Notes under the pieces: model-generated
Told to the model about the DNA's origin: nothing
Database searches by the model: none
Seen by the model: the letters and a program-made list of their open reading frames with translations, nothing else
Position numbers and translations under genes: made by a program
In this document: positions 25,793 to 42,669 of the stretch, one piece after another
Numbering within the stretch: the first letter of the stretch is position 1
How the letters are laid out: each line of letters opens with the position of its first letter
Source: Candidatus Omnitrophota bacterium
Lineage (GTDB): Bacteria > Omnitrophota > Gorgyraeia > Gygaellales > Profunditerraquicolaceae
Direction of reading: 5' to 3'
Assembly: GCA_041663665.1 (NCBI GenBank)
Contig: JBAYMG010000003.1
Location: 3,991-67,990 of the forward strand
DNA: 64,000 nucleotides

Positions 25793-26515
25793 ATGTTAGA
25801 GATAAAAATAAGGCAGCTGGGGAATATTGTTATTTTAGATTTAAGCGGACGCATAGACGTAGATTCGGCTAATTTAGTGGAAGTAGCCGGCCAATGTGTG
25901 TCTAATGGTTACATAGATATTCTTTGTAATTTTGAAGATATTCAGACTATCGATTATATGGGTATTTCGGTAGTGGTTATTGCTTATAAAGAGGTGGTTA
26001 ACCATCTGGGTAGAATGAAATTTATCAATATTCCGGCACACCTTAAGAGTGCTTTAGTAGTTTCCGGCATAGACAAGGTTATTGAAACTTATGCTTCCGA
26101 AGATATAGCCTTAAATAGTTTTAAGGAAGATAAAATTATTGAGAAAATTAAGAAAATGCAGCTGCGCCGCAGGTTTAAGCGCTTGCCCATTGACCTAAAG
26201 GTAGAATTAAAATCTAAACAAGATAATTCTTTATCCTGTCCGGAACTTGACATGCTTAACTTAAGCGCTATCGGCGCTTATATATTCGGGTGTAATAAGT
26301 TTAAACTGGGGGATGAAGTATTGCTTAAGATGAAGCTTGCTCCGCAACAGGACCAGCTCTGTTTAGAGGCAATCGTAGTTTGGATACCGGATAGGGCTGT
26401 TCAACCGCATCAGTATCCGGGAATCGGGGTAGAGTTTGTTAATCTATCTATAGTCAACCAGCAGAAATTGATCGCATTTATTGAACGTAATCTTTCTTTT
26501 ATGTCTTCGGATTAA
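25793..26515 (+). CDS. STAS (anti-sigma-factor antagonist-like) domain fused to a C-terminal PilZ c-di-GMP-binding domain
   Basis: N-terminus IVILDLSGRIDVDSANLVE...KFINIPAHLKSALVVSGIDKV (STAS fold). C-terminus has RRRFKR (RxxxR) and NLSAIG (D/NxSxxG) PilZ motifs. Confidence 0.65.
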   Translation: MLEIKIRQLGNIVILDLSGRIDVDSANLVEVAGQCVSNGYIDILCNFEDIQTIDYMGISVVVIAYKEVVNHLGRMKFINIPAHLKSALVVSGIDKVIETYASEDIALNSFKEDKIIEKIKKMQLRRRFKRLPIDLKVELKSKQDNSLSCPELDMLNLSAIGAYIFGCNKFKLGDEVLLKMKLAPQQDQLCLEAIVVWIPDRAVQPHQYPGIGVEFVNLSIVNQQKLIAFIERNLSFMSSD

Positions 26516-26594: not shown

Positions 26595-27689
26595 ATGTTT
26601 TGGTATACTTATTTTAAAGGGGGAATTCCGGTGGTTTCGCTAAAAGAGCACTTATGTAATTTGGTTACCGGCAAAACAAAAGGTTTGGTGGCTGGGCTTT
26701 TGAGGGGTTTTTTATTTGTGCTTTCTTTAATTTATGGTTTGATTGTAGTTATTTTGGCAGGGTTCTATAGGGCCAGGCCGGTTAAATTTAAAGCTAAAGT
26801 TATCAGTGTAGGTAATATTACCTTGGGGGGTACAGGTAAAACGACTTTTGTTGAGTATTTGGCTGGTAAATTAAATTTAGAAGGAAGGAAGATTGCAGTA
26901 TTAAGCCGCGGTTATAAAAGTAAAAAGCATGACGGCTTGCAAGCCAGGGGTGATGAGCCGGCTATGTTAGAAAAGAAATTGCCATTTGCTCTAGTGTTAG
27001 TTGATAAGAATAGGGTCAGGTCGGCTCTTAAGGCGACTAAAGATTATGCGGTAGATACCTTAATTCTTGATGACGGTTTGCAGCAGTGGCGGATATTTAA
27101 AGATTTAGAGATAGTGGCTATTGATGTCGGCAATGCTTTTGGAAATTCCCGTATACTTCCGGCTGGTTTCTTGAGGGAGCCGCTAAGTGCTTTAAAGCGT
27201 GCAGATGTCTTTCTGTTGACTCAAGGCTTTCTTGGGCAAGATGTAAATGAATTGACGGCTAAATTAAAACGCATAAATTCTCAAGCCCTAATTATTGAAT
27301 CCGTACATCAACCTGTGGGGTTTAGCCCCCTGGATAACCCGGATGAGCTGTTAAGTTTAGATTTCTTTAGAGGCAAAAGTGTAATGATATTTTCTGGTAT
27401 TGGCAATCCCCTGGGGTTTGAAAATAGCATTAGTTCATTGGGAGCCAATATTGCTAAAGCAATTAGATTTAGCGACCATCATGATTATACTATTGAGGAT
27501 GTCGATAAGCTTATTGTTGAAGCACAACGAAAGAAATTAGAAGCAGTTATCACAACCGAAAAGGATGCTGTTAAAATCAGGCAGTTAGGGATAAAGGATT
27601 CCGGCATATCGGTCTTAGGCATAGAGTTAAAGGTAATTAAAAATGAAGCCGAACTCGATCGTAGATTATTCAGCTTGTATTCTTTTTAG
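26595..27689 (+). CDS. lpxK: tetraacyldisaccharide 4'-kinase
   Basis: P-loop VGNITLGGTGKT; 364 aa. The in-frame GTG at 26631, with SD AAGGGGGAA 7 nt upstream, is a better start if the promoter at 26563-26591 is real. Confidence 0.88.
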   Translation: MFWYTYFKGGIPVVSLKEHLCNLVTGKTKGLVAGLLRGFLFVLSLIYGLIVVILAGFYRARPVKFKAKVISVGNITLGGTGKTTFVEYLAGKLNLEGRKIAVLSRGYKSKKHDGLQARGDEPAMLEKKLPFALVLVDKNRVRSALKATKDYAVDTLILDDGLQQWRIFKDLEIVAIDVGNAFGNSRILPAGFLREPLSALKRADVFLLTQGFLGQDVNELTAKLKRINSQALIIESVHQPVGFSPLDNPDELLSLDFFRGKSVMIFSGIGNPLGFENSISSLGANIAKAIRFSDHHDYTIEDVDKLIVEAQRKKLEAVITTEKDAVKIRQLGIKDSGISVLGIELKVIKNEAELDRRLFSLYSF

Positions 27690-29568
27690 GTTAGTAAGCT
27701 TTTTCACAGCTTACTTACCTTTAAATTTCAGTCTTTTTTTTGGCAGGAGGCTGGGTGATCTTATTTATCTATTTGATAGGAAACATCGCTTGATTGCCTA
27801 TACGAATATCCGGCACGCTTTAGCTGATAAAATTAATTGGCAGAGATGCAAAAAGATTACTCGTTCTGCTTACCAGTCTTTTGGCCAGAATCTTATGGAA
27901 ATTTCTTTCATCGGGCGTATAGATAAACAGTATCTTGAAAAATATATCCAAATTGAGAATAAAGATAACATCGATGCTGCTTTTAAGAGAGGTAAGGGGG
28001 TAATTTTCCTGGCGGTTCATGAAGGAGATTGGGAGCTTTCTAATATTATTTGTGCCAATTTAGGTTTTCCTTTTACTTTGTTTGTGCGCGACCAGGGGCT
28101 TCCCCGGCTTAATGATTTACTTAATTCATATCGGCTTAAACGGGGGGCAAAGATTATTCATAAAAAAGCCGGAGTACGCCAATTAATTGAAGTGCTTAAA
28201 AATAACCAGGCGATCGGGATGACTACCGACCAGGGCGGCAAGAATGGACAACTGGTTAGATTTTTTGGGCAAGATGCTTCAATGGCTGTGGGTGCTGTAA
28301 AGTTGGCATTAAAGTATGATTGTTCAATAATTCCGGTTTTTTATACGCGGATTAAAGGTCCTTATACTAAAGTATTTTTGGATCAAGTTTATACGGTTAC
28401 CAGAAGCGAAAACCCTGAGAATGATTTAAAGGATAATTTGCAGAGAATAATTAGTGTCTATGAAAATTATATCCGGAAATATCCTTATGAATATCTCTGG
28501 ACTTACAAGGTATGGAAGTACGGCAAGGATAAGGAAATCTTAATTCTTTCTGATGGAAAAACCGGCCATTTGCGTCAATCAGAAGGATTAGCTAAATTAA
28601 TTAACCAACAGTTGTCCAGCCGGGGCATAAAAACTAATTTGTTTATTAAAGAAGTAAAATTCGGCCGCGAGGCCTTAGTTTGGCTTCAAATAGCCAAAGC
28701 CATCGGCCGCATTGATTGTTTGCGCCATGCTTTAACTGATGAAAGCTGGCAAAGTTTAATGAGTTCTAAACCGGATTATATTATTTCTGCCGGAGGCTTG
28801 ATGAGTGTTCTAAATTATCTTTTAGCCCGGGAAAACCAGGCAAAATCAATTTGCTTAATGAAGCCGTCGAATATCAGCTTAAAAAAATTTAATTTAGTAA
28901 TTGTTCCGGAACACGACGGGAATTTTAAAAGAAAGAACGTCGTAATTACTGAAGGGGCGCTTAATTTAATTGACGCTGATTATTTAAATCAGAAACTAGA
29001 GAGAATAAGGCGCTCTGGCCTTATCAAAGCAGGTTTACTTAATCCTTGTATTGGGGTATTAATTGGAGGAGATAGTAAGAATTTTTCTCTCGATCAAAAG
29101 ATAATAACTAAGCTTGCTGTTCAAATTAAGAAATCTGCTGAAGAGTTAAATGCCAGCCTTTTGATTTCTACTTCACGTCGTACTTCTCCGGAAGTCCAGG
29201 AGCAGGTAAAAAATGAATTTGCCAATTATCCACGCTGCAAGTTGTTGGTTATTGCCAATGAGAATAACAATCCGGATGTTGTTGGAGGAATAATCGGATT
29301 AAGTAATATAATAATCAATTCTCCGGAAAGTATTTCCATGATTTCTGAAGCCGCGGCAGGAGAGAAATACGTTGTCGTATTTAAGGCTAGAGGCCTGAGT
29401 AGAAAGCATGAACGTTTTTTAAAAAAATTTCAAACCAAGAAGTATATCTATTTTAAACAGATTGAAGAATTAGCTGATTGTCTTAACTGGATATGGCAAA
29501 ATAAACCTCAAGTTAATTCTCCCCGGGATGATTTAAAAGTAATTGAGGGTTTAAATAAAATAATATGA
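27643..29568 (+). CDS. fusion: lipid A biosynthesis late acyltransferase (LpxL/HtrB family) + C-terminal ELM1-like (DUF1022) domain
   Basis: N-terminal ~300 aa: TM anchor, then LAVHEGDWELSN (H(X)4D/E-type acyltransferase motif) and the MTTDQGG region typical of Kdo2-lipid IVA acyltransferases. C-terminal ~340 aa starts ILILSDGKTGHLRQSEGLAKL, resembling the SDGkxGHenQ opening of the Mito_fiss_Elm1 family. 47-nt overlap with lpxK. Confidence 0.65.
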   Translation: MKPNSIVDYSACILFRLVSFFTAYLPLNFSLFFGRRLGDLIYLFDRKHRLIAYTNIRHALADKINWQRCKKITRSAYQSFGQNLMEISFIGRIDKQYLEKYIQIENKDNIDAAFKRGKGVIFLAVHEGDWELSNIICANLGFPFTLFVRDQGLPRLNDLLNSYRLKRGAKIIHKKAGVRQLIEVLKNNQAIGMTTDQGGKNGQLVRFFGQDASMAVGAVKLALKYDCSIIPVFYTRIKGPYTKVFLDQVYTVTRSENPENDLKDNLQRIISVYENYIRKYPYEYLWTYKVWKYGKDKEILILSDGKTGHLRQSEGLAKLINQQLSSRGIKTNLFIKEVKFGREALVWLQIAKAIGRIDCLRHALTDESWQSLMSSKPDYIISAGGLMSVLNYLLARENQAKSICLMKPSNISLKKFNLVIVPEHDGNFKRKNVVITEGALNLIDADYLNQKLERIRRSGLIKAGLLNPCIGVLIGGDSKNFSLDQKIITKLAVQIKKSAEELNASLLISTSRRTSPEVQEQVKNEFANYPRCKLLVIANENNNPDVVGGIIGLSNIIINSPESISMISEAAAGEKYVVVFKARGLSRKHERFLKKFQTKKYIYFKQIEELADCLNWIWQNKPQVNSPRDDLKVIEGLNKII

Positions 29569-31658
29569 AAATATTGCAGATATTGCCTGAACTTAATGTC
29601 GGAGGAGTTGAAACCGGGACTTTGGATTTATCCAAATATCTGGTTCGGCTGGGACATAAATCAGTAGTTGTTTCTGCCGGCGGGAGTTTGGTTAAAGAAT
29701 TAGAATCCGGAGGCGCTAAACATTATACCTTAGCAGTAAACAAGAAATCGATTGTTTCTATGTTCAAGTTGGTTCCGGAATTAGTTAAGATAATTAAAAA
29801 AGAAGAGATTGATATTGTGCATGCTCGTTCAAGGGTGCCGGCTTGGATCGCTTATTTTGCCTGTCGGCGGACCAAAGCAGTATTGATTACTACTTGCCAC
29901 GGTTATTATAAAAAACACTTTTTTGGTTTAGTCATGGGCTGGGCAAAAAGAGTAATTGCTATAAGCAATGTGATTGCCAGGCATATGATCGATGATTTTT
30001 CTGTTCCGCATGATCGTATTAAGCTTGTGCCGCGCAGCGTAGATTTAGAGAAATTTAAGTACCTTGACCCTAAAGAAAAAAGAAAGGAAGTTTTTAATGT
30101 CGGCATTATCGGCAGGATTACTCCACTCAAGGGACACTTGCATTTTATTAAGGCTATGGCGCATCTTTCCCGGGTTATTCCGCGCTTAAAGATTTGGATT
30201 GTCGGGGATGCTCCTGCTTCGAAGGAAGCGTATAAAGAAGAAGTCCAGGTTTTAGTCCGCAGGCTCGGGCTTTGGCATTGCACGCAGTTTTTGGGTACGC
30301 AGCGGGATATTCCTGGAATACTGGCGAATTTGGATTTAGTAGTTTTGTCGACTACAACCCATGAAGCATTCGGCCGGGTGGTGGTTGAGGCCCAGGCTGC
30401 TGGAGTACCGGTGGTAGCTACCAAGGTCGGAGGCGTAATTGATATTATTGAGGATGGTAAAAATGGGCTTCTTGTGCCTCCGGCAGATCACAAGAGTATG
30501 GCTGAAGCTGTGCTGCGGATATACAAGGATGTGCAATTAGCAAGAGAATTAGCTGAGAATGCTTATGCTAAGGTTAAAGAAAAGTATAATGTGGAATTAA
30601 TGGTTAAAAATACCCTGGATGTTTACCGGGATGCTTTAAGTAATTTTAAAATTCTAATCATTAAGCTTAGTTCTTTAGGGGATGTAATTCTAACTACCGC
30701 GGCGTTAAGGGCTATCCGGGAAAAATTTCCCCGGCCGAATTTTAAAATAAGCTTTTTAATTGGTGAAGAATCTAAGGATATACTTTTGAGGAGCCCTTAC
30801 ATTGATGAACTGTTAGTTTGTGACCTAAAGAATAAAGATAAAGGTTTATCCGGCTTATGGAACGTTGGGAATATTTTACGCAAGAAATATTTTGACATGG
30901 TCATCGACCTGCAGAATAGCCGGGCAAGCCATGTATTATCTTATTTAAGCGGTTCGATTAACCGGTATGGCTATGACAACAATAAATTTTCTTTTTTACT
31001 TAATCATACTATTAGAGATGACAAGTCGTTGATTGATCCGGTAACTCATCAATTTAGAATTTTAAAAATGCTCGGAATTGATCTTTTGAATAGCCGTCTT
31101 GAGCTTTGGCCGTCTATGGAAGATAGTAAAGCTATGGATGAGCTTTTGAACGCCCAGTGGGTAAGCCAGGCGCAAAAGATTGTTGGGATTAATATTAGTG
31201 CTTCTAAAAGGTGGAATACTAAAATTTGGCCGCTGGAATATCTAGTCTGTTTGTGCGAAGAATTAGGATTAAAAGATATACGTGTGGTAGTCACCGGTAC
31301 AGCTAGCGATATTTCTTTTGCTAACCGGTTGATTGGTTCAATAAAAAATACGAAGATTATCAATGTTTGTGGTAAAACCAGCATAAACGAGTTAGCGGCT
31401 TTAATTAGTAAATGTAACGTATTTATTTCTGCGGATTCTTCTCCGCTGCACGTTGCTTCTGCTGTTGGCACTGCTTTTGTTGCGTTGTTTGGCCCGACTG
31501 ATTACCGCCGGCATTTACCTCCCGGTAAAAATTGTGTTGTAATTAGCAAGAACCTGAATTGTAGCCCTTGTTATAAAACTAGCTGCCGGTCTAAGCGCTG
31601 TATGGCTGAGATTAAACCCAATGAAGTATTTGAAGCTGTGGTAAAATTGCTTAAATGA
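29565..31658 (+). CDS. bifunctional glycosyltransferase: N-terminal GT4 (GT-B, retaining) + C-terminal GT9 (heptosyltransferase-like) domains
   Basis: N-terminus MKILQILPELNVGGVETGTLDL...E(X)7E-type region VVEAQAAGVPVVATKVGG. C-terminus ILIIKLSSLGDVILTTAALRAIREKFP and ADSSPLHVASAVG (GT9 signatures). 697 aa. Confidence 0.8.
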   Translation: MKILQILPELNVGGVETGTLDLSKYLVRLGHKSVVVSAGGSLVKELESGGAKHYTLAVNKKSIVSMFKLVPELVKIIKKEEIDIVHARSRVPAWIAYFACRRTKAVLITTCHGYYKKHFFGLVMGWAKRVIAISNVIARHMIDDFSVPHDRIKLVPRSVDLEKFKYLDPKEKRKEVFNVGIIGRITPLKGHLHFIKAMAHLSRVIPRLKIWIVGDAPASKEAYKEEVQVLVRRLGLWHCTQFLGTQRDIPGILANLDLVVLSTTTHEAFGRVVVEAQAAGVPVVATKVGGVIDIIEDGKNGLLVPPADHKSMAEAVLRIYKDVQLARELAENAYAKVKEKYNVELMVKNTLDVYRDALSNFKILIIKLSSLGDVILTTAALRAIREKFPRPNFKISFLIGEESKDILLRSPYIDELLVCDLKNKDKGLSGLWNVGNILRKKYFDMVIDLQNSRASHVLSYLSGSINRYGYDNNKFSFLLNHTIRDDKSLIDPVTHQFRILKMLGIDLLNSRLELWPSMEDSKAMDELLNAQWVSQAQKIVGINISASKRWNTKIWPLEYLVCLCEELGLKDIRVVVTGTASDISFANRLIGSIKNTKIINVCGKTSINELAALISKCNVFISADSSPLHVASAVGTAFVALFGPTDYRRHLPPGKNCVVISKNLNCSPCYKTSCRSKRCMAEIKPNEVFEAVVKLLK

Positions 31659-31727
31659 ACCACGTATATTCTGTAATTTTAACTATGGAATGGGGTTTAA
31701 TGAAATGAATAAGGAAGAGGGTGTAAG

Positions 31728-32822
31728 GTGAATGTGCTTTTTATTGCTAATCATCTTAACGTTGGTGGAATATCCAGTTATCTGTTTACTTTATCTACCG
31801 GTTTAAAAGAAAATGGGCATAATGTTTATTTGGCTTCCAGCGGCGGAGAATTAGTTGAAAAGTTTGTTTTGTCGGGAATAAAACATATCCAGGTCCCCCT
31901 AAAGACAAAGAGCGAAATCAGCCCGAAAATTATTCTTAGTTTTTTAAAATTAAAAAAACTGATGCGGGTAAATAATATTGACCTGGTTCATTCCAATAGC
32001 CGGACTACTCAGGTGTTGGGTAATTTATTGAGCCGATCCAGGGGTGTTGTGCATATTTTCACTTGTCACGGTTTTTTTAAGCCGAAACTTTCACGCAGGC
32101 TTTTCCCATGTTGGGGAGAAGCTGTTATTGCTATCAGCCAAGAGGTAAAAGAGCATTTAATTTTCGATCTTAAATTACCTGAGTGTAAGATAAGTGTAAT
32201 AAATAATGGTATTGATGTTAAAAATTTCGGAGATTTTTCGCAAAGGGATAATTTACGTAAAAAATTAGGAGTTAATGACCAGTTTTTAGTCGGTATTATC
32301 GCCCGTTTATCTGATGTAAAAGGCCATATTTATCTTATTCGGGCAATGCCTGAAATTTTGAAAAGCTTTGCTCTGGTTAAATTATTAATTATCGGAGAGG
32401 GTAAGATGAAAACAACGCTAGTTAAGGAAGTTGATCGCTTAGGTATTAAGGATAGCGTTTTATTTATTGATCAGGCCAGCGAAACTAGGGACATGCTTTC
32501 AGCGATGGATATTTTTATTATGCCTTCATTGCAGGAGGGGTTGGGGCTTGCGCTTATGGAAGCAATGGCTCAAGGTTTGGCTGTTGTTGGTTCTCGTGTC
32601 GGAGGAATAAAGACCTTAATTCAGGATAAGGTTAATGGCTTATTAGTTAATCCGCAGGATTCCGCAATGCTGGCTGAAGCAATCATAACTTTACTTAAAG
32701 ACAGCCGGATGCGCCGTGATTTAGGATTGAATGCGCGTAAATTTATTATGGGTAATTTCTCTAACGAAAAAATGGTTGAAGGTACAGAACTAATTTATAA
32801 ACATTGTTTAAAAGATGGATAA
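31728..32822 (+). CDS. glycosyltransferase family 4
   Basis: MNVLFIANHLNVGGISSYLFTL...LMEAMAQGLAVVGSRVGG; 364 aa. Confidence 0.85.
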   Translation: MNVLFIANHLNVGGISSYLFTLSTGLKENGHNVYLASSGGELVEKFVLSGIKHIQVPLKTKSEISPKIILSFLKLKKLMRVNNIDLVHSNSRTTQVLGNLLSRSRGVVHIFTCHGFFKPKLSRRLFPCWGEAVIAISQEVKEHLIFDLKLPECKISVINNGIDVKNFGDFSQRDNLRKKLGVNDQFLVGIIARLSDVKGHIYLIRAMPEILKSFALVKLLIIGEGKMKTTLVKEVDRLGIKDSVLFIDQASETRDMLSAMDIFIMPSLQEGLGLALMEAMAQGLAVVGSRVGGIKTLIQDKVNGLLVNPQDSAMLAEAIITLLKDSRMRRDLGLNARKFIMGNFSNEKMVEGTELIYKHCLKDG

Positions 32823-33852
32823 AAGGCACAGTTATAAACGTATTTTAATATTTAACGTTAATTGGCTGGGGGATGTTTTATTTTCTACCGCAACCATAAG
32901 GAATATTCGCATGAACTATCCTGATAGTTATCTTGCCTGCATAATTCCTAGCCGTTGTTCTGCGATATTAAAAGGCAATCCCTATCTGGATGAAGTGATT
33001 CTCTTTGATGAGAAAGATAAACATCGGGGAGTGTTCGCCAAGCTTAATTTTGTCAATCTTCTTAAAAACAAAGAATTTGATGCTGTTTTTCTGTTACACC
33101 GCTCGTTTAGCCGGGCACTCATCTGTCGCTTGGCCGGTATTGTTAACCGCATCGGGCATATTACTAAGAAGCGCGCATTTCTTTTGACTAAGCGGATTGT
33201 TCCTCCGAAAGTTGATTCTCTGCATCGTATAGATTATTATCTGGATATAATCAAGAAGGATGGGCTGCGTGTTGTAGACCGGCACCTGGATTTCTTTTTT
33301 GCCGTTGAAGATGAAGAAGCTGTTGATAAGTTTTTAATTAAAAATTCAGTTTTCAAGGATAATTTTGTAATCGCGCTTAATCCCGGAGGAAATTGGCTGC
33401 CTAAACGCTGGCCTCGGGAATATTGGGCAGAATTGGCGGATAAATTAATTAGTCAGTTAAAAGCGAAAGTAATTGTTACCGGTAGTTCAGCTGATTTATT
33501 ATTGGTTAATCAGATTAAAGAGAATATGCGGGAGTTACCGTTAGTTGCTTGCGGGGTTTTTAATATAAAGCAACTGGGGGCATTAGCAAAAAAGGTTGAC
33601 CTTTTTATTACTGCCGATACCGGCCCATTACATATTGCTAATGCTGTGGGCGCTAAAAAAATAATTGCGATATTTGGGCCGACTGCCAAAGAGATTACCG
33701 GTCCGTATCCGCCTACGAATGTGATTATTTTACAAAAAAATACAGGGTGTTTGATACCCTGCTATAAGGTTGATTGTCAGGATAACCGTTGTATGAAGGC
33801 AGTTACTCCTGATGATGTTTTTGCTGAAGCCAGAAAAGTAATAAAAAAATGA
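32815..33852 (+). CDS. glycosyltransferase family 9 (LPS heptosyltransferase-like)
   Basis: ILIFNVNWLGDVLFSTATIRNIRMNYP, ADTGPLHIANAVG; 345 aa. Confidence 0.85.
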   Translation: MDKRHSYKRILIFNVNWLGDVLFSTATIRNIRMNYPDSYLACIIPSRCSAILKGNPYLDEVILFDEKDKHRGVFAKLNFVNLLKNKEFDAVFLLHRSFSRALICRLAGIVNRIGHITKKRAFLLTKRIVPPKVDSLHRIDYYLDIIKKDGLRVVDRHLDFFFAVEDEEAVDKFLIKNSVFKDNFVIALNPGGNWLPKRWPREYWAELADKLISQLKAKVIVTGSSADLLLVNQIKENMRELPLVACGVFNIKQLGALAKKVDLFITADTGPLHIANAVGAKKIIAIFGPTAKEITGPYPPTNVIILQKNTGCLIPCYKVDCQDNRCMKAVTPDDVFAEARKVIKK

Positions 33853-35855
33853 AGATTCTTTTTGTAACCTTAAGCAATATTGGGGATTGTATTTTGACTC
33901 TTCCGGTTTTAGATGTTTTGCGGGAAAAATACCCGCAGGCAAAAATTACCTGTCTTGTGCCGCCCCGGCCTAGCGAGATTTTTGTTAATAATCCGGTAGT
34001 TGATAGAGTGGTTGTATTTGATAAGCATGTTAAGTTAAAAGAAAAGATTAATTTATTCCTTTCATTAAATAAGGAAAAATTCGATTTAGTTGTCGATTTG
34101 CGGAACAGTTTTTTCGGTGCTTTCCTTGCGGCTAAAAAAAGAACTTCTCCTCTGCGCAGGATTCCTAAAAAGTTCAGGCATATGAAAGACCGGCATTTAT
34201 TTTGGGCTGAATTTTGTGATTATGTTTTGAAGAATAAATTAAATCGGTCTTTAGTGATTACTTCTGGCGATAGGGATTATATTGCGGGTATGCTTAAGGA
34301 GAATAATTTAGCTGATTGTGATAAATTGATCGTGGTTGCTCCTGGTTCACGGAGCCAGTCTAAGTGTTGGGACAAGCAAAATTTTAGCCAGCTCTGCCGT
34401 CGGCTAGTTAAGGAAGGTTTTGATTTGGTTTTAGTCGGTGATAAGGCCGATCAGTTTGCTTGTTCGTATGTGCAGAAATCCTGTCCGGAAGCTGTTAACC
34501 TTTGCGCTAGAACATCTATAAGCCAGTTGGCTGCTTTATTGAAAAAAGCAAAATTATTATTGACCAATGACAGCGCGGTGATGCACTTAGCAAGCTATTT
34601 GGATGTACCGGTTGCAGCAATATTCGGGCCAACCGATGAAGCCAAATACGGTCCATGGTCGAAAAAAAGCGTGGTGATTAAAAAAGATATTTTTTGTCGG
34701 CCTTGTCAGAAAGCGCAATGCCGTTTTCAAACTTTAGCTTGTTTGGCGGCAATCAAACCCGATGATGTGTTCTTGCAGATAAAGCCCTTACTTGAGGATA
34801 ACGGCCAAATAATCCTTGGAAATAATAAGCAGTACCGCAGAATTCTTATCAGCCGTACAGATCGCATGGGGGATGTTCTTTTATCAACTCCGGTTATTCA
34901 GGCCCTAAGGGAAAGTTTTCCCCAGGCTTATATTGCGATGATGGTTACTCCTTATGCTCGAGATATCGTCGAAGGTAACCCTTATTTGGATGAAGTTATC
35001 CTCTACGATAAAGACGGCAAACATAAAAGCTGGGTAGGGAGCCTTAAATTTGCCGGCAGATTAAAGAAGAAAAAATTTGACTTGGCGATTGTTTTGTATC
35101 CTAATAACCGCGTACATTTGATAACTTTTTTAGCCGGGATTAATCAACGTTTGGGTTATGATCGTAATTTTAAATTTTTACTTACAGATCAAATTAAGCA
35201 CACTAAACAATATGGGGAAAAGCATGAATCCGAGTATGCTTTAGACCTGGTTAGGTATTTAGGGGTTAAGCCTAAAGAAGTTTCGTTGTTTATGCCGATA
35301 AAGCAGGAGTCCGAGGAATGGGCTAATGCCTTGTTCAGAGAAGAAGGTATTAAGGGTACGGATAGATTATTAGTTATTCATCCGACTGCAAGCTGTGATT
35401 CAAGGATTTGGCCGGCTGAAAGGTATGCGCAAGTTGCTGAAAAGCTTATTCAGAAATATGGTTTTAAAGTTTGTATTGTTTCCGGCGGTAAGGATATTCA
35501 AAAAGCCAAAGCGGTGGTTAAAAACATGCGCAGTAAGGTGGTGGACCTAATTGGCAAGACTTCAATTAGCCAGGTGGCTAGCCTGTTAAAGAGATCACAA
35601 TTGTTTATTTCTACGGATTCCGGGCCCATGCACGTGGCAGTGGCTTTCGGTGTGCCGGTGGTTACGATTTTTGGCCGCAAACAACCAGGGCTTAGCCCGA
35701 AGCGCTGGGGGCCGCTGGGTAAACAAAGTAAATATCTTCATAAAGATGTGGGCTGCATTCAGTGCTTGGCGCATAATTGCAAAAAAGAGTTTGCCTGCCT
35801 TAAAGCAATCAGCGTTGATGATGTCGTTTTAGCCGTAGAATCAATTTTAAAGTAA
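33849..35855 (+). CDS. tandem double GT9 (two heptosyltransferase-like domains in one 668-aa polypeptide)
   Basis: Domain 1 ILFVTLSNIGDCILTLPVLDVLREKYP...NDSAVMHLAS. Domain 2 ILISRTDRMGDVLLSTPVIQALRESFP...TDSGPMHVAVAFG. Confidence 0.8.
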   Translation: MKILFVTLSNIGDCILTLPVLDVLREKYPQAKITCLVPPRPSEIFVNNPVVDRVVVFDKHVKLKEKINLFLSLNKEKFDLVVDLRNSFFGAFLAAKKRTSPLRRIPKKFRHMKDRHLFWAEFCDYVLKNKLNRSLVITSGDRDYIAGMLKENNLADCDKLIVVAPGSRSQSKCWDKQNFSQLCRRLVKEGFDLVLVGDKADQFACSYVQKSCPEAVNLCARTSISQLAALLKKAKLLLTNDSAVMHLASYLDVPVAAIFGPTDEAKYGPWSKKSVVIKKDIFCRPCQKAQCRFQTLACLAAIKPDDVFLQIKPLLEDNGQIILGNNKQYRRILISRTDRMGDVLLSTPVIQALRESFPQAYIAMMVTPYARDIVEGNPYLDEVILYDKDGKHKSWVGSLKFAGRLKKKKFDLAIVLYPNNRVHLITFLAGINQRLGYDRNFKFLLTDQIKHTKQYGEKHESEYALDLVRYLGVKPKEVSLFMPIKQESEEWANALFREEGIKGTDRLLVIHPTASCDSRIWPAERYAQVAEKLIQKYGFKVCIVSGGKDIQKAKAVVKNMRSKVVDLIGKTSISQVASLLKRSQLFISTDSGPMHVAVAFGVPVVTIFGRKQPGLSPKRWGPLGKQSKYLHKDVGCIQCLAHNCKKEFACLKAISVDDVVLAVESILK

Positions 35856-36032: not shown

Positions 36033-36962
36033 ATGATAAATATTAAGAAGATTAAGACCTATTCAATAAATACTCGTTTAAGCAAGGTAAGTAAGGGTGA
36101 TTTTGCTCTTAAACCTGTTAAAGGCAAGAGTTTTAGTGCCTTTTTGGATTCTTTGCCCAATATTTTAAAAGCCAAAGATTTGGACGCGGTTTCTTCAGAT
36201 ATAGTTTCGGCGGCTAAGAAAAAGAAGGGCGTAATTTTTATGGCCGGAGCCCATGTTATTAAATGCGGGCTTAATCCGGTATTAATTGAATTAATCCAAA
36301 AGAAAATAATTACCTGTATTTGTTTGAATGGCGCAGGTATTATTCATGATTTTGAGATAGCTTTCCAGGGTAAAACTTCCGAAGATGTTGCTGAGAACTT
36401 AAAGACCGGAAAATTTGGCATGGGCAGAGAGACTGCTGATTTTTTAAATGTTGCTTCGACGAACGGAGTTAAAAAAGGTTTTGGTTTAGGCTATGCTGTA
36501 GCTAATGCGATAGCTGCGGAAAATTTACCAAATAAAGATTTAAGCCTGCTTTATAATGCTTATAAACACAAGGTGCCGGTTTGTGTTTTTGTGGGTATTG
36601 GAACTGATATAATTCACCAGCATCAATCATTTGATGCCGCCTCTACAGCGTTAGGTTCTTTGCGCGATTTTCATATTCTCGTTGACAATATCCGTTCGAT
36701 AAATCAAGGCGGGGTAGTTTTAAATTTTGGTTCGGCAGTATTATTGCCGGAAGTATTTTTAAAGGCGCTTAATCTTGCACGTAATTTGGGGAATAAAGTT
36801 AAAGATTTTACTACTGCAAATTTTGATATGATTTATCAATACCGGCCAAGCCAGAATGTGGTCAATCGCCCGGTTTTGTCAGGGGGTAAAGGCTATTATA
36901 TTATTGGCCATCATGAATTAATGCTTCCGCTTTTAGCCCAAAGTGTAATGGAAAAGATCTAA
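36033..36962 (+). CDS. deoxyhypusine synthase (DHS)-like family protein
   Basis: KKKGVIFMAGAHVIKCGLNPVLIELIQKKIITCICLNGAGIIHDFEIAF aligns by eye with archaeal/eukaryotic DHS ([46 protein letters not shown]). Later VPVCVFVGIGTDIIHQH aligns with IPIFSPAITDGSLG. 309 aa. Confidence 0.6.
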   Translation: MINIKKIKTYSINTRLSKVSKGDFALKPVKGKSFSAFLDSLPNILKAKDLDAVSSDIVSAAKKKKGVIFMAGAHVIKCGLNPVLIELIQKKIITCICLNGAGIIHDFEIAFQGKTSEDVAENLKTGKFGMGRETADFLNVASTNGVKKGFGLGYAVANAIAAENLPNKDLSLLYNAYKHKVPVCVFVGIGTDIIHQHQSFDAASTALGSLRDFHILVDNIRSINQGGVVLNFGSAVLLPEVFLKALNLARNLGNKVKDFTTANFDMIYQYRPSQNVVNRPVLSGGKGYYIIGHHELMLPLLAQSVMEKI

Positions 36963-37015
36963 AGGCCTGTAGAAAATAATATTTTAATCGGGTAAGAATA
37001 AGAGGATTTTAATCG

Positions 37016-38029
37016 GTGAAAAATTTAAAAAATATTATTAATAAATTTAATCGAGCTAAGATTTTAGTTGTCGGCGACCTGATTCTTGATGAATATATTC
37101 GTGGTACAGTTGAGCGGATTTCTCCTGAAGCTCCGGTTCCCGTGCTTTGGGCCAGCAAGCGTACTTTTGTCCCCGGCGGTACAGCTAATGTTGCCAACAA
37201 TATCAATTCGTTGGGCGGAAAAGTTACCTTGTTGGGGGTAGCCGGCAATGACGCTAACGCAAAAATTTTATTTAGTGAGTTGGAAAAAAGAAAAATCAGC
37301 ACCCAGGGTATTTTTATTGAAAAAAACAGGCACACAACTGTAAAAACAAGGATTCTTGCCGGGCATCAGCAGGTGGTTAGGGTTGATTGGGAACATACAC
37401 ATGATTTAACCGGAGAGCTCAACACGAAAATTTTGAAATTTATTGAAAAGAATATTGATTCTTTTGATGCGATTATTATTGAAGATTACGGTAAAGGAGT
37501 AATTAATATTGCGTTACTTGAGAAATTAATTTTGCTAGCGCAGCTTTATCATAAAATTATTACTGTTGATCCTAAAGAAGAAAATTTCCGGTATTATCGT
37601 GGAGTAACTTCGATTACTCCCAATCGTAAAGAATTAGAGAATGCGGTTAGAAATCTTAAGGTCCAGGATACGGCCAATCGTTTTAAAATGAATACGGATA
37701 AATTGTTTACCGATAAAGATGTGGATTTAGCCGCGCGCGAAATTTTAGAGTATCTTAACCTGGATTCTATTCTGTTTACTTTGGGTGAGCAGGGAATGAA
37801 GTTGCTGGAAAACAACGGCCATCTGACACACATCCCGACGCAAGCTCAAGAAGTTTTCGATGTATCCGGTGCCGGGGATACTGTCATTAGCACTTTTACT
37901 CTGGCTCTTTGTTCGGGGGCCTCAAAATTAGAAGCAGCTTATATTGCGAATTTTGCCGCAGGTATTGTCGTCGGCAAGTCCGGAACGGCAGTTACGGATA
38001 CTCAGGAACTTTTAGAGAGGATAAAATAA
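37016..38029 (+). CDS. hldA: D-glycero-beta-D-manno-heptose 7-phosphate kinase (RfaE domain I, PfkB family), monofunctional
   Basis: ILVVGDLILDEYIRGTVERISPEAPVPVL and DVSGAGDTVIS (ribokinase-like anion hole). There is no fused adenylyltransferase domain. GTG start with SD AAGAGGA. Confidence 0.8.
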   Translation: MKNLKNIINKFNRAKILVVGDLILDEYIRGTVERISPEAPVPVLWASKRTFVPGGTANVANNINSLGGKVTLLGVAGNDANAKILFSELEKRKISTQGIFIEKNRHTTVKTRILAGHQQVVRVDWEHTHDLTGELNTKILKFIEKNIDSFDAIIIEDYGKGVINIALLEKLILLAQLYHKIITVDPKEENFRYYRGVTSITPNRKELENAVRNLKVQDTANRFKMNTDKLFTDKDVDLAAREILEYLNLDSILFTLGEQGMKLLENNGHLTHIPTQAQEVFDVSGAGDTVISTFTLALCSGASKLEAAYIANFAAGIVVGKSGTAVTDTQELLERIK

Positions 38030-38770
38030 ATGGATGTAATCGGAGTTATCCCTGCAAGGTATTCATCGACTAGGTTTGCGGGTAAGGTACTTGCGGATAT
38101 TATGGGTAAGCCAATGTTGCAGCATGTTTGGGAACGCGCCAGGCAATCACGCATGTTGGATGATTTGATTATCGCCTGTGATGACGAAGCTATCCTTAAA
38201 GCGGCAAAAAAATTCGGCGCTCATGCCGTGATGACATCTAAGGAGCATACTTGCGGAACAGACAGGATTAGTGAAGTGGTTAATCCTTTGGATGTTAAAG
38301 TTATTATTAATATCCAGGGTGATGAGCCATTAGTTCACCCGATGATGATTAATAGCGTTGCCCGGGCATTATTAGAAGATCCTTCTTTGAATATGGCTAC
38401 ACTGATGAGAAAAATTGAAGATTCAATGCAGGTATTTGATCCGAATGTTGTAAAAGTAGTGGTAGATAAAAATAATTTTGCTTTATATTTTTCGCGTGCC
38501 CCTATTCCGTTTCTTGCTCCGAATGCCGATATTGAACAGGTAACTTATTATAAGCATATCGGTCTTTACGGTTATACCAAGGATTTTCTTTTTACTTATA
38601 AAAATCTTCCTGCGTCGAATCTTGAGAAAACGGAAAAATTAGAACAGCTGCGCGTTTTATCTGAAGGTTTTAAAATAAAAGTAATTGAAACAACTTTTGA
38701 TACTGTCGGCGTGGATACGGTGCAGGATTTAGAAAAAGTTAAAGCACAATTGCAGAAGGGGATAAACTGA
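38030..38770 (+). CDS. kdsB: 3-deoxy-manno-octulosonate cytidylyltransferase (CMP-Kdo synthetase)
   Basis: MDVIGVIPARYSSTRFAGKVLADIMGKPMLQHV; 246 aa. Confidence 0.93.
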   Translation: MDVIGVIPARYSSTRFAGKVLADIMGKPMLQHVWERARQSRMLDDLIIACDDEAILKAAKKFGAHAVMTSKEHTCGTDRISEVVNPLDVKVIINIQGDEPLVHPMMINSVARALLEDPSLNMATLMRKIEDSMQVFDPNVVKVVVDKNNFALYFSRAPIPFLAPNADIEQVTYYKHIGLYGYTKDFLFTYKNLPASNLEKTEKLEQLRVLSEGFKIKVIETTFDTVGVDTVQDLEKVKAQLQKGIN

Positions 38771-39582
38771 TGCAGCAGGTTAATGTTAAGAATATAAAAT
38801 TTGGGGATAAATATCCGCTGGTACTTATTGCCGGGCCTTGTGCAATTGAAAGCCAGAGTTCTTGTTTAGCAGCAGCTAAACAGATTAAGGATATCGCCGC
38901 CGGCCAAAACGTGCCGTTTATATTTAAGTCTAGTTTTGATAAAGCTAACCGGCTTTCTCATGGTTCTTATCGCGGGCCGGGATTAAAAAAAGGATTAGCA
39001 ATCTTAAAAAAAGTAAAAAACCAGCTTAAAGTGCCTATTTTAAGTGATGTGCATTGTGCAAAAGATATGTCTGCAGCTGCGCAAGTTTTGGATATTATCC
39101 AGATACCGGCTTTTCTCTGCCGCCAGACCGATATTGTGCTCGCGGCTGCTTCAACCGGTAAGGTTGTAAATATTAAAAAAGGGCAATTTCTTGCGCCTTG
39201 GGATATTTTGCCGATAATTAAAAAAGTCGAATCTGCAGGCAATAAGCAAATTTTGATTACCGAGAGAGGGGCAAGTTTCGGTTATAATAATCTAGTTACT
39301 GATTTTCGTAGTCTAAAAATTATGCGCGATTTTGGTTATCCGGTAATTTATGATGCTACGCATAGCGTGCAACTTCCCGGAGGCAAGGGCAGTTGTTCCG
39401 GAGGACAGAGTGAATTCGTTGCCGGACTTTCCCGCGCGGCTGTGGCTTTTGGTTGTGATGGATTATTTTTAGAGGTGCATAATGACCCAAAGAATGCGCC
39501 TTGTGATGGAGCTAACATGATTAATTTTAAAGAATTAGAGGATCTGCTCAAGCAGATAAAAAAGATCAGGGCGGCGTTATGA
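38770..39582 (+). CDS. kdsA: 2-dehydro-3-deoxyphosphooctonate aldolase (Kdo-8-P synthase)
   Basis: LVLIAGPCAIES...KSSFDKANR; 270 aa. Confidence 0.95.
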   Translation: MQQVNVKNIKFGDKYPLVLIAGPCAIESQSSCLAAAKQIKDIAAGQNVPFIFKSSFDKANRLSHGSYRGPGLKKGLAILKKVKNQLKVPILSDVHCAKDMSAAAQVLDIIQIPAFLCRQTDIVLAAASTGKVVNIKKGQFLAPWDILPIIKKVESAGNKQILITERGASFGYNNLVTDFRSLKIMRDFGYPVIYDATHSVQLPGGKGSCSGGQSEFVAGLSRAAVAFGCDGLFLEVHNDPKNAPCDGANMINFKELEDLLKQIKKIRAAL

Positions 39583-40547
39583 AAATAAATGTGGCTAAAC
39601 GGGCAAAAGAAGTTTTTGATATTGAAGCTGATGCTATAATCCAGCTTAAAAGCCGGATAGGGAAAAATTTTATTCAGGCGATAGAATTAGTTCTTAAATG
39701 TAAAGGCAGGGTGGTAGTCAGCGGTATGGGTAAGACTGGAATTATCGCTCAGAAATTTTCTGCAACTTTAGCTTCTACCGGTACGCCTAGTTTATTTCTG
39801 CATACGGCTGAAGCTATCCATGGAGATTTAGGCAAGGTTACCGTTGACGATATCGTAATTATTCTTTCCAATAGTGGCTCAACCGCAGAGATGAAGCAGC
39901 TTTTGCCGATACTTAAAAAAATCGGTTCGCCAATAATCTCGCTTACCGGAAATATAAAATCAATTCTTGCTAAGTATAGCGATGTTGTGCTGGATGTTTC
40001 AGTAAAAAAAGAAGCTTGCCCGCTAGGTTTGGCTCCTACGGCTTCAACTACTGCTTCGCTGGCTATGGCTGATGCTTTAGCGGTATGCTTGTTGGAATGC
40101 AAAGGTTTTAAAGAAAAGGATTTTGCTTTTTTTCATCCGGGAGGAGCTTTGGGCCGCCGGTTGCTTTTGAGTGTTGAGGATATTATGCGCCGAGGGCAGG
40201 CCAATGCAATCGTTAGTGAAGATAAAAAAGTTTCGCAAGTTTTATGTGCGATTACCCGGGCTCGCGCCGGATCAGCGATAGTTGTGGATAAAAAAGGAAA
40301 AGTGAAAGGGATTTTTACTGACGGGGATTTGCGCAGGCATTTAGAAAGCGATGAAAATTTGCCGAGCCGCCGGATAACCGAAGTAATGACTAAAAATCCT
40401 ACGGTAGTTAAAAAAGATATGTTGGCTGCTGAGGCAATGCATATTATGCAGTCTAAAAAAATCGATGAAATTCCGGTAGTTGATAATAATTTTCACCCGC
40501 TGGGTTTATTGGATGTACAGGATTTACTTAAAGCAGGATTGGTGTAA
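39579..40547 (+). CDS. kdsD: arabinose-5-phosphate isomerase (SIS + tandem CBS)
   Basis: VVVSGMGKTGIIAQKFSATLASTGTPS (SIS) plus C-terminal CBS pair; 322 aa. Confidence 0.88.
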   Translation: MKINVAKRAKEVFDIEADAIIQLKSRIGKNFIQAIELVLKCKGRVVVSGMGKTGIIAQKFSATLASTGTPSLFLHTAEAIHGDLGKVTVDDIVIILSNSGSTAEMKQLLPILKKIGSPIISLTGNIKSILAKYSDVVLDVSVKKEACPLGLAPTASTTASLAMADALAVCLLECKGFKEKDFAFFHPGGALGRRLLLSVEDIMRRGQANAIVSEDKKVSQVLCAITRARAGSAIVVDKKGKVKGIFTDGDLRRHLESDENLPSRRITEVMTKNPTVVKKDMLAAEAMHIMQSKKIDEIPVVDNNFHPLGLLDVQDLLKAGLV

Positions 40548-40549
40548 AA

Positions 40550-41092
40550 ATGGATAAGCTAGCTATTGGCGAAGAATTGTGTGTGCGTTTTAAGAAAATT
40601 AAACTTCTCCTCTTGGATGTTGACGGAGTTCTAACCGATGGGAGGATAATTTATGATTCGCAGGGCAGAGATTCAAAATTTTTTGATGTGCATGATGGTT
40701 TGGGCGTTTTTGTTTTACATAAATCCGGAATTAAGACGATTTTGATTACAGCTAAAAGTTCAAAAACCATAAAGCCGCGTGCTCGCGATATGCATGTTGC
40801 TCAGGTCTTCGCCGATATTTTTCCAAAAACTGTTGTTTTGGGCAAAATTTTGATGAAATACAAAGTTTCATCGGATGAGGTTTGTTTTATTGGCGACGAT
40901 TTAGTGGACTTAGCGCTGATGCGAAAAATCGGTTTACCGATTGCAGTCGCTAATGCTTCCGCGCCGATTAAAGAAGCAGCTGTTTATGTTACTAGCCATT
41001 CCGGCGGACGCGGGGCAGTTAGGGAAGTTGCCGAGTTAATTCTTAAGTCACAGGACAAATGGAAAGATATCTTGCATTTTTATGAAGCATAA
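40550..41092 (+). CDS. kdsC: Kdo-8-phosphate phosphatase (HAD superfamily, subfamily IIIA)
   Basis: LLLLDVDGVLTDGRIIYDSQG...FIGDDLVDL; 180 aa. Confidence 0.85.
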   Translation: MDKLAIGEELCVRFKKIKLLLLDVDGVLTDGRIIYDSQGRDSKFFDVHDGLGVFVLHKSGIKTILITAKSSKTIKPRARDMHVAQVFADIFPKTVVLGKILMKYKVSSDEVCFIGDDLVDLALMRKIGLPIAVANASAPIKEAAVYVTSHSGGRGAVREVAELILKSQDKWKDILHFYEA

Positions 41093-41966
41093 AAAAATAG
41101 TTTTAGTTTTTACGTTTCTATTCCTTTTATCTTCCATTCTTTTAGCTGAAGAAAACAAAGAAGCAAAAGAGTCTACTCAACAGATTGGAGATTTTTCCCT
41201 TTCCGGGTTTGGAGATAAAGGGAAGAAGTCCTGGGATTTAGCCGGAAAATCTGCAGATATTTATAATGATGTAGTCAAGCTTAAAGAAGTAAAAGGCAAT
41301 CATTATGCACCGAAAGATAGTATTAATTTAACTGCCGATAATGGAGATTTTAACAAAAAAAGCGGCATGGTGCATTTACAGGATAATGTGGTGATTACTA
41401 CTTCAAGCGGCGCAAAGCTGACTACGGATTCTCTGGATTGGGATCGTAAGCAGCAAATCGTCAGTACTTTAGAAAAAGTTAATTTAAACCGGGCAGATAT
41501 GAATCTTTCCGGAGTTGGGGCAAAGGGGCAGACTGCCTTAAAACAAGTGGTATTAGAAAAAGATGTCCGATTGGATGTTGCGCCTTTTGATAAACAAAAA
41601 AATAAAAAAGAGAAGATTACTATTACCTGTGACGGACCGCTAGATGTGAATTATGAAAAAAATATTGCCATATTTAATAATAATGTTAAAGTAGAAAAAT
41701 CAGATTTAACTATTTATAGTGATAAGATGCAGGTCTATTTTTCTCCCAAGCAGGAAGAAGGTAAAGTCGTTAAGGAAGATGGCGTTACTTCAAGCTCGAT
41801 TAATAAAATTGTAGCTTTAGGGAATGTGCGTATCTTGCGTGGTGAGAACACAACTTATAGCCAGGAAGCAATCTATAATGCATTAGATAGAAGAATAACT
41901 TTAACCGGTAAGCCACAGATAGTTATTTACCAGACGGAGAATCTGAATGCGACTTTTGGAAACTAA
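41082..41966 (+). CDS. LptC/LptA-like (OstA-like beta-jellyroll) LPS transport protein, apparently an LptC-LptA fusion
   Basis: N-terminal TM anchor, then an LptC-like segment ([40 protein letters not shown]) and an LptA/OstA_N-like segment ([20 protein letters not shown]...[22 protein letters not shown]). It sits between kdsC and lptB as in the E. coli kdsD-kdsC-lptC-lptA-lptB order. Confidence 0.6.
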
Positions 41967-42669
41967 AGGGTTAGCTAAGTCTTACGATGGCCGAGCTGTG
42001 GTTAAGGGGGTCGATATAACGGTTAAGCGTGGGGAGATTGTCGGGCTCCTTGGGCCTAACGGTGCAGGCAAAACTACGACTTTTTACATGATTGTCGGTA
42101 TTGTTCCGCCGAATAACGGAACAATTGTTTTTGATAATCACGACATTACTAATTTGCCGATTCATGAGCGTGCGCGTTTTGGCATAGGCTATCTTGCGCA
42201 GGAAGCTTCAATCTTTCGTAAACTTACGGTTGAAGACAATATTACTGCCATTTTAGAGACTTTGCCTTTTTCCCGTGCGGAAAGAAAACGCAGGCTTGCT
42301 TCTTTGCTTGAAGAGTTAAACATTGCGCATCTGGCTAAAAATAAGGCTTACACTTTAAGCGGAGGAGAAAGAAGGCGGCTTGAGATTACTCGGGCCTTGG
42401 TAACTAATCCTTCTTTTATACTTTTAGATGAACCTTTTAGCGGTATTGATCCGATAGTGGTTAATGAGGCGCAGGAAATTATTAAAGAGTTAAAAGCAAA
42501 AGGGCTGGGTATCTTATTGACTGACCACAATGTACGTGAAACTTTAGCTATAACCGACCGGGCGTATTTGATTTCCGGTGGGGAAATTCTTATAGCCGGT
42601 ACGGCGCATGAACTGATTAACCACCCGCAGGCGCGCCAGGTTTATTTGGGTGAGAAATTTAAAATGTGA
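41947..42669 (+). CDS. lptB: LPS export ABC transporter ATP-binding protein
   Basis: Walker [10 protein letters not shown], signature [11 protein letters not shown], Walker [12 protein letters not shown]; 240 aa. Confidence 0.93.

Follow-up and report, generated by a model that had tools for sequence, protein, structure and literature searches.

Gene organization of the glycosyltransferase block

We analyzed a stretch of 64,000 nucleotides (nt), hereafter the window, from a metagenome-assembled genome (MAG) of a Candidatus Omnitrophota bacterium, and focused on four adjacent open reading frames (ORF1 to ORF4) for glycosyltransferases (GTs) that likely build the inner core of its lipopolysaccharide (LPS). 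Features of the window are given by their positions in it (Table 1). Both Pfam and NCBIfam recognized six GT-B modules in the four ORFs, two of family GT4 and four of family GT9, at scores far beyond chance. ORF1 joins a GT4 and a GT9 module in one polypeptide (GT4a~GT9a, the tilde marking a fusion), ORF2 is a stand-alone GT4 protein (GT4b), ORF3 a stand-alone heptosyltransferase-like GT9 protein (GT9b), and ORF4 a tandem fusion of two GT9 modules (GT9c~GT9d). An earlier reading of this DNA, hereafter the original prediction, had given the same domain assignment, ORF coordinates and lengths; the assignment is borne out by Pfam and NCBIfam, and the coordinates and lengths are exact.

The gene order is waaA, a few unrelated genes, lpxK, a gene for an LpxL~ELM1-like fusion, the four GT ORFs, a GSU2086-family gene, the hldE kinase gene, the kds genes, lptC~lptA and lptB. 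The genes examined on the + strand around the GT block all belong to LPS synthesis or housekeeping, and the LPS inner-core context named in the original prediction is correct.

Domain architecture and predicted structures

In ORF1, Pfam matched PF13439 at amino acids (aa) 12-163 (E-value 5e-30), PF00534 at aa 170-335 (1.1e-36) and PF01075, the GT9 family, at aa 434-677 (1e-36). ORF2 was matched by PF13439 and PF00534 (2.9e-40), ORF3 by PF01075 (7.2e-33), and ORF4 by PF01075 in two stretches (5.1e-77). Against a PF01075 cutoff of 22 bits, ORF1 scored 127 bits, ORF3 114.4 bits and ORF4 259 bits over its two stretches. The NCBIfam model of heptosyltransferase II spanned aa 362-696 of ORF1, aa 9-342 of ORF3, aa 331-667 of ORF4 and, separately, aa 2-315 of ORF4.

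The AlphaFold2 (AF2) model of ORF1 reached a mean predicted local distance difference test score (pLDDT) of 90.9 and a predicted TM-score (pTM) of 0.85. As modeled, the two modules are joined without a linker, and the last GT4 helix (aa 343-359) continues into strand beta-1 of the GT9 module (aa 361-367). For ORF4 (pLDDT 85.8, pTM 0.78), only residues 318-326 are disordered in the model, and the N-lobe of GT9c is trimmed and contains fewer strands. Foldseek matched ORF1 to 7MI0, a Rickettsia GT4 (target TM-score, TMt, 0.85), and to 3TOV, a GT9 (TMt 0.88). Over the GT9 modules, TMt was 0.87-0.88 with 3TOV, 0.81-0.82 with 1PSW (WaaF) and 0.78 with WaaC, and the structures closest to the GT4 modules were 7MI0, HepE and BshA (TMt 0.84-0.86). 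Sequence matches in the PDB pointed to the same entries, with E-values of 9e-40 for GT9d against 3TOV and 3e-55 for GT4a against 7MI0, together with WaaF (1PSW) and WaaC. No solved PDB chain found by Foldseek spans two of the modules (maximum query TM-score, TMq, 0.47). The C-terminal halves of the two fusions, the point at which the original prediction had seen itself as open to refutation, are GT9 by Pfam, NCBIfam and Foldseek alike.

Catalytic residues and the Cys4 knuckle

Both GT4 modules have the make-up of family GT4, namely an N-terminal PF13439 and a C-terminal PF00534 domain, an EX7E motif and a GT-B fold. The first glutamate of the motif in GT4a (E267) is kept in 51 of 53 sequences, with aspartate in the other 2, and the second (E275) in 53/53; in GT4b both (E270, E278) are invariant in 57 sequences. 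GT4a and GT4b share 31% identity.

When the four GT9 modules were aligned with Escherichia coli WaaC, WaaF, WaaQ and WaaU, G12, D13, D261 and H266 (WaaC numbering) were invariant, and the K192 position held lysine in the window modules except for arginine in GT9d. The 57-68 orthologues of each module show little or no change at the equivalents of D13, D261 and H266, and lysine or arginine throughout at that of K192. All four positions are invariant in 58 GT9a sequences, one of which is gapped at the D13 column, and the corresponding D20, K197, D268 and H273 of GT9b are invariant in 59 sequences. GT9c keeps the aspartate in 64/64, lysine or arginine in 64/64 and the histidine in 61/64 (glutamine in 3), and the catalytic residues of GT9d are conserved in 68 sequences. 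GT9b, GT9c and GT9d match the heptosyltransferase signature D(T/S)(G/A)xxH (PMC3559599). GT9a carries D-S-(S/A)-x-x-H, the form that the D,D-heptosyltransferase WahD is reported to have (PMC3559599). These residues, together with the predicted folds, make it probable that each of the six modules is an active glycosyltransferase. The original prediction had called the GT9 domains heptosyl- or Kdo-transferase-like; the first half of this wording stands, as they belong to the heptosyltransferase family, but the transferase for 3-deoxy-D-manno-octulosonate (Kdo) is the separate waaA product (PF04413).

All four GT9 modules also carry a compact knuckle of four cysteines (Cys4), CxxC-x4-C-x4-6-C (CxxxC in GT9b), which directly precedes the final helix in a region of low AF2 confidence. 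Among 58-68 orthologues the knuckle is all but invariant, and E. coli WaaC, WaaF and WaaQ lack it. Since the knuckle occupies the position of the iron finger of TibC, it probably binds metal.

The four GT9 modules are 28-33% identical to one another and 18-27% to the E. coli enzymes. They form old, distinct orthogroups (neighbor-joining (NJ) bootstrap 96, 92, 93 and 52) that are already present in the most divergent genomes and pair with no E. coli paralogue. Within the block, the best BLAST paralogues pair GT4a with GT4b and GT9a with GT9b. An origin of the block by duplication of a GT4-GT9 unit was rejected for the GT9 halves (bootstrap 3 for a GT9a+GT9b clade), and so was a recent tandem duplication behind GT9c~GT9d, the halves of which are 30% identical (clade bootstrap 0).

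Distribution and history of the fusions

Full-length GT4~GT9 and GT9~GT9 proteins each make up >120 clusters at 90% identity in NCBI, JGI, ENA and Logan assemblies, and those with a name are nearly all Omnitrophota. A scan with one genome per species yielded 80 loci, about 67 of them from Omnitrophota, at 37-69% identity to ORF4. Synteny from lpxK to kdsA is kept in about 60 Omnitrophota genomes, where module-by-module BLAST gave the order lpxK - LpxL~ELM1 - GT4a~GT9a - GT4b - (often CE4) - GT9b - GT9c~GT9d - GSU2086 - hldE kinase - kdsB - kdsA; about 40 loci share the stretch from GSU2086 to kdsA in synteny. The GT4-GT9 and GT9-GT9 architectures, which the original prediction had regarded as unusual, are instead the norm across the sampled Omnitrophota.

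The two fusions differ in constancy. GT4a~GT9a is fused in 54/54 loci showing it and is the sole fusion without exception. GT9c~GT9d is fused in 62 loci, and the three most divergent loci encode its halves as separate adjacent ORFs (L064 and L067, each with a 14-nt overlap; L065, non-overlapping). Because the split form occurs in the most divergent loci, ORF4 is most simply explained as a fusion that arose inside the phylum. Two further loci are arranged as [4b~9b][9c][9d] (L088) and [4a~9a][4b~9b~9c][9d] (L087); each comes from a single cluster and may be a frameshift artefact. Across lineages the module order 4a-9a-4b-9b-9c-9d is conserved and the fusion break points differ, which suggests that the modules act next to one another and probably carry out successive steps. 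The simplest reading is that tightly packed neighboring genes fuse readily, and that the fusions are tolerated since the modules already act side by side.

Multi-module GT-B proteins are common in environmental sequence space. Of the 149 top representatives, taken at 50% identity in a search through 1.84 billion proteins, 56 were GT4~GT9, 19 GT4~GT4, 12 triple GT4 and 8 GT9~GT9, with 1 each of GT4~GT9~GT9 and GT9~GT4. Two proteins considered as reverse-order GT9~GT4 (P0276, P0281) were rejected, being GT4~GT4 by Pfam content and module BLAST. The survey also revealed a second class of GT4~GT9 proteins (P0354, P0414, P0422, P0398, P0401), which includes an LpxB~GT4~GT9 form of about 1,100 aa. 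It has the same domain order as ORF1, and its GT4 half is of the GT4a family (31-38% identity, about 200 bits). Unlike in ORF1, the GT9 half forms a clade of its own (bootstrap 100) rather than grouping with GT9a, the linker is longer and the gene adjoins thrS-infC; the separate GT9 clade indicates an independent fusion. Among stand-alone GT4 proteins with a name, those closest to it are alphaproteobacterial. At locus L085, an LpxB~GT4~GT9 protein of 1,099 aa (6736-10035) is encoded in an lpxA-lpxI-[lpxB~GT4~GT9] operon. Another LPS-enzyme fusion outside Omnitrophota is an LpxL~GT9 protein of 660 aa, encoded in a Chthoniobacterales MAG (L075, 5551-7533).

In 31 related loci, about half of the relatives, a CE4 deacetylase (265 aa, lipoprotein-like, PgaB/IcaB-type; e.g. 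L011, 8185-8982) lies between GT4b and GT9b. Tblastn found no match to it in the window, where ORF2 and ORF3 overlap instead. This suggests that the core contains an N-acetylated sugar, which some lineages deacetylate.

Gene junctions and neighboring genes

The genes of the GT block follow lpxK and the LpxL fusion in close succession, as the original prediction had stated. Its further claim that all ORFs are translationally coupled agrees with the overlaps of 4 nt between the LpxL~ELM1-like ORF and ORF1 (29565/29568), 8 nt between ORF2 and ORF3 (32815/32822) and 4 nt between ORF3 and ORF4 (33849/33852), but does not extend to ORF1 and ORF2, which are separated by a 69-nt spacer (31659-31727, + strand), the only non-overlapping junction of the block. 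The sequence of this spacer contains a purine-rich, Shine-Dalgarno-like stretch, AAGGAAGAGGG, ahead of the GTG start of ORF2. There is no earlier in-frame start of ORF2, because the ORF listing takes the first start past the preceding stop. In related genomes the ORF1/ORF2 junction is a 4-nt overlap in 22/54 cases; across the phylum a 4-nt overlap is the most frequent form of three junctions, and a gap follows ORF4 in 37/38 loci. The overlap between lpxK and the LpxL~ELM1-like ORF is 47 nt (27643-27689), with the same length in 40/46 related loci; as it is unusually long and conserved, the true start of the latter ORF may lie downstream.

The LpxL~ELM1-like protein is fused in 47 related loci, with one apparent split into LpxL and ELM1 (L047). 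Its C-terminal family, PF06258, is listed in the GT-B clan CL0113 (PMC10327509), by which the coupled block would hold seven GT-B-clan domains in five ORFs. Alignment of the ELM1-like domain with GT9 and GT4 profiles by hhalign was not significant (E 0.015-0.05), and its GT-B status derives from the Pfam clan listing.

The other neighbors are listed in Table 1. The GSU2086-family gene always separates the GT block from the hldE kinase gene, commonly overlapping the latter by 4 nt, and its product may contribute in an as yet unrecognized way to the supply of heptose or core sugars. At locus L068 (724-2697) it is seemingly fused to the HldE kinase (657 aa), which could be a single-indel artefact. 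LptC~LptA is a further LPS-pathway fusion of the same region. The STAS-PilZ protein encoded upstream of lpxK is possibly a regulator resembling anti-sigma-factor antagonists and responsive to cyclic di-GMP. In the window as a whole, GC skew is strongly positive in every 2-kb bin (0.08-0.29), and the family-supported genes are all on the + strand, with a DEAD/DSHCT helicase gene (13903-15993, - strand) as the sole exception. Rfam and tRNA scans of the 64 kb returned no family match and no tRNA gene.

Table 1 Features of the glycosyltransferase block and its surroundings in the window
Feature	Position	Strand	Description	Evidence
ORF1	29565-31658	+	697 aa, GT4a~GT9a fusion	Pfam, NCBIfam, AF2
GT4a	29565-30644	+	aa 1-360 of ORF1	
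GT9a	30645-31658	+	aa 361-697 of ORF1	
ORF2	31728-32822	+	364 aa, stand-alone GT4b, GTG start	PF13439 + PF00534
ORF3	32815-33852	+	345 aa, stand-alone GT9b, heptosyltransferase-like module	PF01075
ORF4	33849-35855	+	668 aa, GT9c~GT9d tandem fusion	PF01075 x2
GT9c		+	aa 1-317 of ORF4	
ORF4 linker			aa 318-326, low confidence	AF2 pLDDT below 50
GT9d	34827-35855	+	aa 327-668 of ORF4	
Cys4 motifs of GT9a, GT9b, GT9c, GT9d	30560-30601, 33748-33792, 34695-34742, 35754-35798			
waaA	22947-24218	+	Kdo transferase (GT30), separate from the GT block	PF04413 8.8e-61
STAS-PilZ protein	25793-26515	+	two-domain protein, directly upstream of lpxK	
lpxK	26595-27689	+	tetraacyldisaccharide 4'-kinase; opens the tightly packed run	PF02606 1.5e-75
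LpxL~ELM1-like fusion ORF	27643-29568	+	LpxL-type late acyltransferase aa 17-292; PF06258 aa 308-602	Pfam
Downstream precursor and transport genes	36033-42669	+	GSU2086-family, hldE kinase, kdsB, kdsA, kdsD, KdsC-like HAD, LptC~LptA, lptB	
GSU2086-family protein	36033-36962	+	weakly similar to deoxyhypusine synthase	
hldE kinase domain	37016-38029	+	337 aa, kinase half only	TIGR02198 366.7 bits
LptC~LptA/OstA-type fusion	41082-41966	+	both domains within one 294-aa ORF	

Proposed role in inner-core synthesis and alternative explanations

We consider it likely that the four ORFs together encode the glycosyltransferases for the inner core in the LPS or lipooligosaccharide (LOS) pathway of this bacterium, with all six modules active and the GT9 modules most likely transferring heptose. 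In the proposed pathway, acylated Kdo-lipid A would first be produced by LpxK, WaaA and the LpxL domain on the cytoplasmic side of the inner membrane, and the six independent GT-B catalytic modules would then extend it. The four inverting GT9 modules would most likely add heptose from ADP-heptose, and the two retaining GT4 modules a hexose-type sugar from a nucleoside diphosphate (NDP)-sugar. The two-module proteins would have arisen by fusion of neighboring, overlapping genes. GT4a~GT9a would be an ancient, rigid two-module enzyme with zero linker, present in every sampled member, and GT9c~GT9d a later fusion inside the phylum with a flexible linker of ~9 residues; in both cases, fusion would merely fix equal expression and proximity of the modules. 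We infer the LPS core as substrate, heptose as the sugar, and any order of action or channeling between modules.

Several observations weigh against this proposal. None of the GT9 modules reaches the cutoff of the HepI (WaaC) model TIGR02193 (185.3 bits), the scores being 100.6 bits for GT9a, 66.6 for GT9b, 88.1 for GT9c and 93.6 for GT9d. The cutoff of the HepII model TIGR02195 (134.6 bits) is narrowly passed by three paralogues (GT9a 148, GT9b 140.7, GT9d 148.2), not all of which can be HepII, and GT9c, at 127.9 bits, passes neither model. No module showed 1:1 orthology to WaaC, WaaF or WaaQ in the NJ tree (bootstrap <=15; <=5 for WaaC), so that BLAST, NCBIfam cutoffs and the tree alike give no assignment of the modules to these three enzymes and do not single out the one that would act on Kdo. 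Of ADP-heptose synthesis, the window encodes the kinase step (hldE) only, and no gene for GmhA, GmhB, the adenylyltransferase or HldD was found in its 64 kb. Co-transcription of the block is deduced from spacing, as promoter and terminator scans gave counts at or below shuffle expectation, and the sole indication of a fixed inter-module geometry is the pTM of the models.

It is conceivable, if rather unlikely, that at least one GT9 module, GT9c foremost, transfers a sugar other than heptose, which would leave the core with fewer than four heptoses. Family GT9 in CAZy includes non-heptose activity, and GT9c is the most divergent and fastest-evolving of the four modules (mean identity to the window sequence 0.55 vs 0.63-0.66 for the other three), carries a 12-residue deletion in the acceptor lobe and stays below every NCBIfam heptosyltransferase cutoff. 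It is absent from loci L062 and L063, where GT9b is directly followed by a GT9d ORF of ~400 aa (about 10000-12200); the GT9c step therefore appears dispensable in some lineages, and GT9c may add a dispensable or variable residue. Nevertheless, GT9c keeps the D13, K192, D261 and H266 equivalents and a D-S-A-x-x-H motif, residues that contact heptose in WaaC.

A hard-wired, stoichiometric assembly line, as the original prediction had it, is possible and compatible with the fusion of tightly packed neighboring genes, but the break points vary and the fusions do not prove a designed machine. In its fullest form, late acylation, an ELM1-like step just beyond Kdo2, GT4a-type transfer and heptosyl transfer would be physically coupled on one unreleased, membrane-anchored acceptor, with gene order as the order of action, which we regard as unlikely. 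This idea draws on the observation that, apart from L047, no sampled locus with LpxL~ELM1-like or the rigid, linker-less GT4a~GT9a has them split, and that a GT4a-type enzyme became fused to GT9 at least twice independently, once also to LpxB. Given the variable break points, opportunistic fusion of overlapping neighbor genes fits at least as well.

One module of each fusion might instead be a catalytically silent scaffold that positions or stabilizes its active partner. Pseudo-enzyme modules are known in multi-domain glycosyltransferases, and the trimmed N-lobe of the GT9c model would suit such a role, but the catalytic Asp, Lys/Arg, Asp and His or the EX7E motif is near-invariant in all six modules across 53-68 orthologues, and modules also occur as free-standing ORFs in some lineages, which makes silent modules quite improbable.

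Still less probable is that the block does not serve the core and instead makes another glycan, such as a heptose-containing capsule or S-layer glycan, or performs protein O-heptosylation like TibC and Aah. GT9-like enzymes do heptosylate autotransporters (PMC4358343), the Cys4 knuckle of all four modules recalls the TibC iron finger, and GT9d weakly matches TIGR04414. However, this match is limited to GT9d and scores 30.7 bits against a cutoff of 200, and the cysteine spacing differs from the CxxC-x15-C-x11-C of the TibC/Aah iron finger, placing the modules outside that group. Modules of 326-345 aa that align with WaaC from the first strand have no room for the N-terminal beta-barrel of TibC (residues 1-97), and in about 60 genomes the block is wedged between lpxK/lpxL and the hldE, kds and lpt genes.

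Finally, assembly or frameshift artefacts of this MAG, which the original prediction had named as a way in which its fusions could be unreal, have a practically negligible probability: a single indel could fuse neighbor genes that overlap by 4 nt, and GSU2086~HldE of L068, P0330 and P0274 may be such cases, but proteins of 697 aa and ~670 aa recurring in the >120 clusters each, in 54 and 62 independent loci and in about 60 assemblies exclude it for ORF1 and ORF4.

Comparison with known systems

The E. coli enzymes WaaC, WaaF, WaaQ and WaaU resemble the GT9 modules of the window in their GT-B fold (TMt 0.78-0.82), the D13, K192, D261 and H266 residues, the LPS-core gene context and the number of GT9 units. 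In contrast, they are four separate monofunctional proteins lacking the Cys4 knuckle, with low identity to the modules and no 1:1 orthology. The original prediction had concluded from the GT9 domains that the core is heptose- or Kdo-rich; since four GT9 modules equal the count of E. coli K-12 (waaC, waaF, waaQ and waaU), this number gives no reason to assume a heptose-rich core. Among solved structures, the two closest, 3TOV of Veillonella parvula (GT9) and 7MI0 of Rickettsia africae (GT4), are single-module proteins whose entry titles give no specific function.

Several GT modules on one polypeptide, each making one linkage, are found in WbdA, with tandem GT4 modules, and in capsule multienzymes. 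PDB 8QOY, a capsule multienzyme, was a weak Foldseek match. These enzymes polymerize repeating O-antigen or capsule chains, whereas the block described here presumably makes a non-repeating core and contains GT9 modules.

The inner-core locus of Acinetobacter baumannii, with the ELM1-like protein 2903, the GT4 enzyme LpsB and a deacetylase, offers a parallel for the upstream part of the block. In both cases ELM1-like sequence is found with a GT4 enzyme, the ELM1-like domain of the window lying directly upstream of the GT4-containing ORF1, and the deacetylase has a counterpart in the CE4 gene of the 31 Omnitrophota relatives, though not in the window. In A. baumannii the ELM1-like protein and LpsB are needed for the first step beyond Kdo2, and loss of either halts the core at Kdo2 (PMC10936431). 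The domain studied here differs in being fused to LpxL, and the A. baumannii core is without heptose. The LpxL~ELM1 fusion gives circumstantial support to the view that ELM1-like proteins act on Kdo-lipid A.

Implications for LPS-core synthesis in Omnitrophota

With these lineage-typical fusions, well-known enzyme families take on a new architectural form, which public databases already contain under uninformative names. Identical fusion proteins are annotated only as "lipopolysaccharide heptosyltransferase II", and homologues also as "PelF"; in the literature searched, neither the fusions nor the LPS of Omnitrophota are described. The fusions do not alter the general view of how the LPS core is made, and their value lies in part in annotation, as the two names hide two-enzyme fusions. 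For Omnitrophota, the conserved block allows six core-glycosyltransferase modules to be mapped in colinear order throughout the phylum. The LpxL~ELM1-like protein adds guilt-by-fusion evidence for an action of bacterial ELM1-like proteins on Kdo-lipid A, a point left open in A. baumannii (PMC10936431). If the coupled, multi-active-site arrangement considered above were true, the fusion pattern would be a Rosetta stone for inner-core assembly and the block a true assembly line for a non-repeating oligosaccharide. In any case, the natural fused and split versions of these enzymes can be used to ask whether core glycosyltransferases form a complex.

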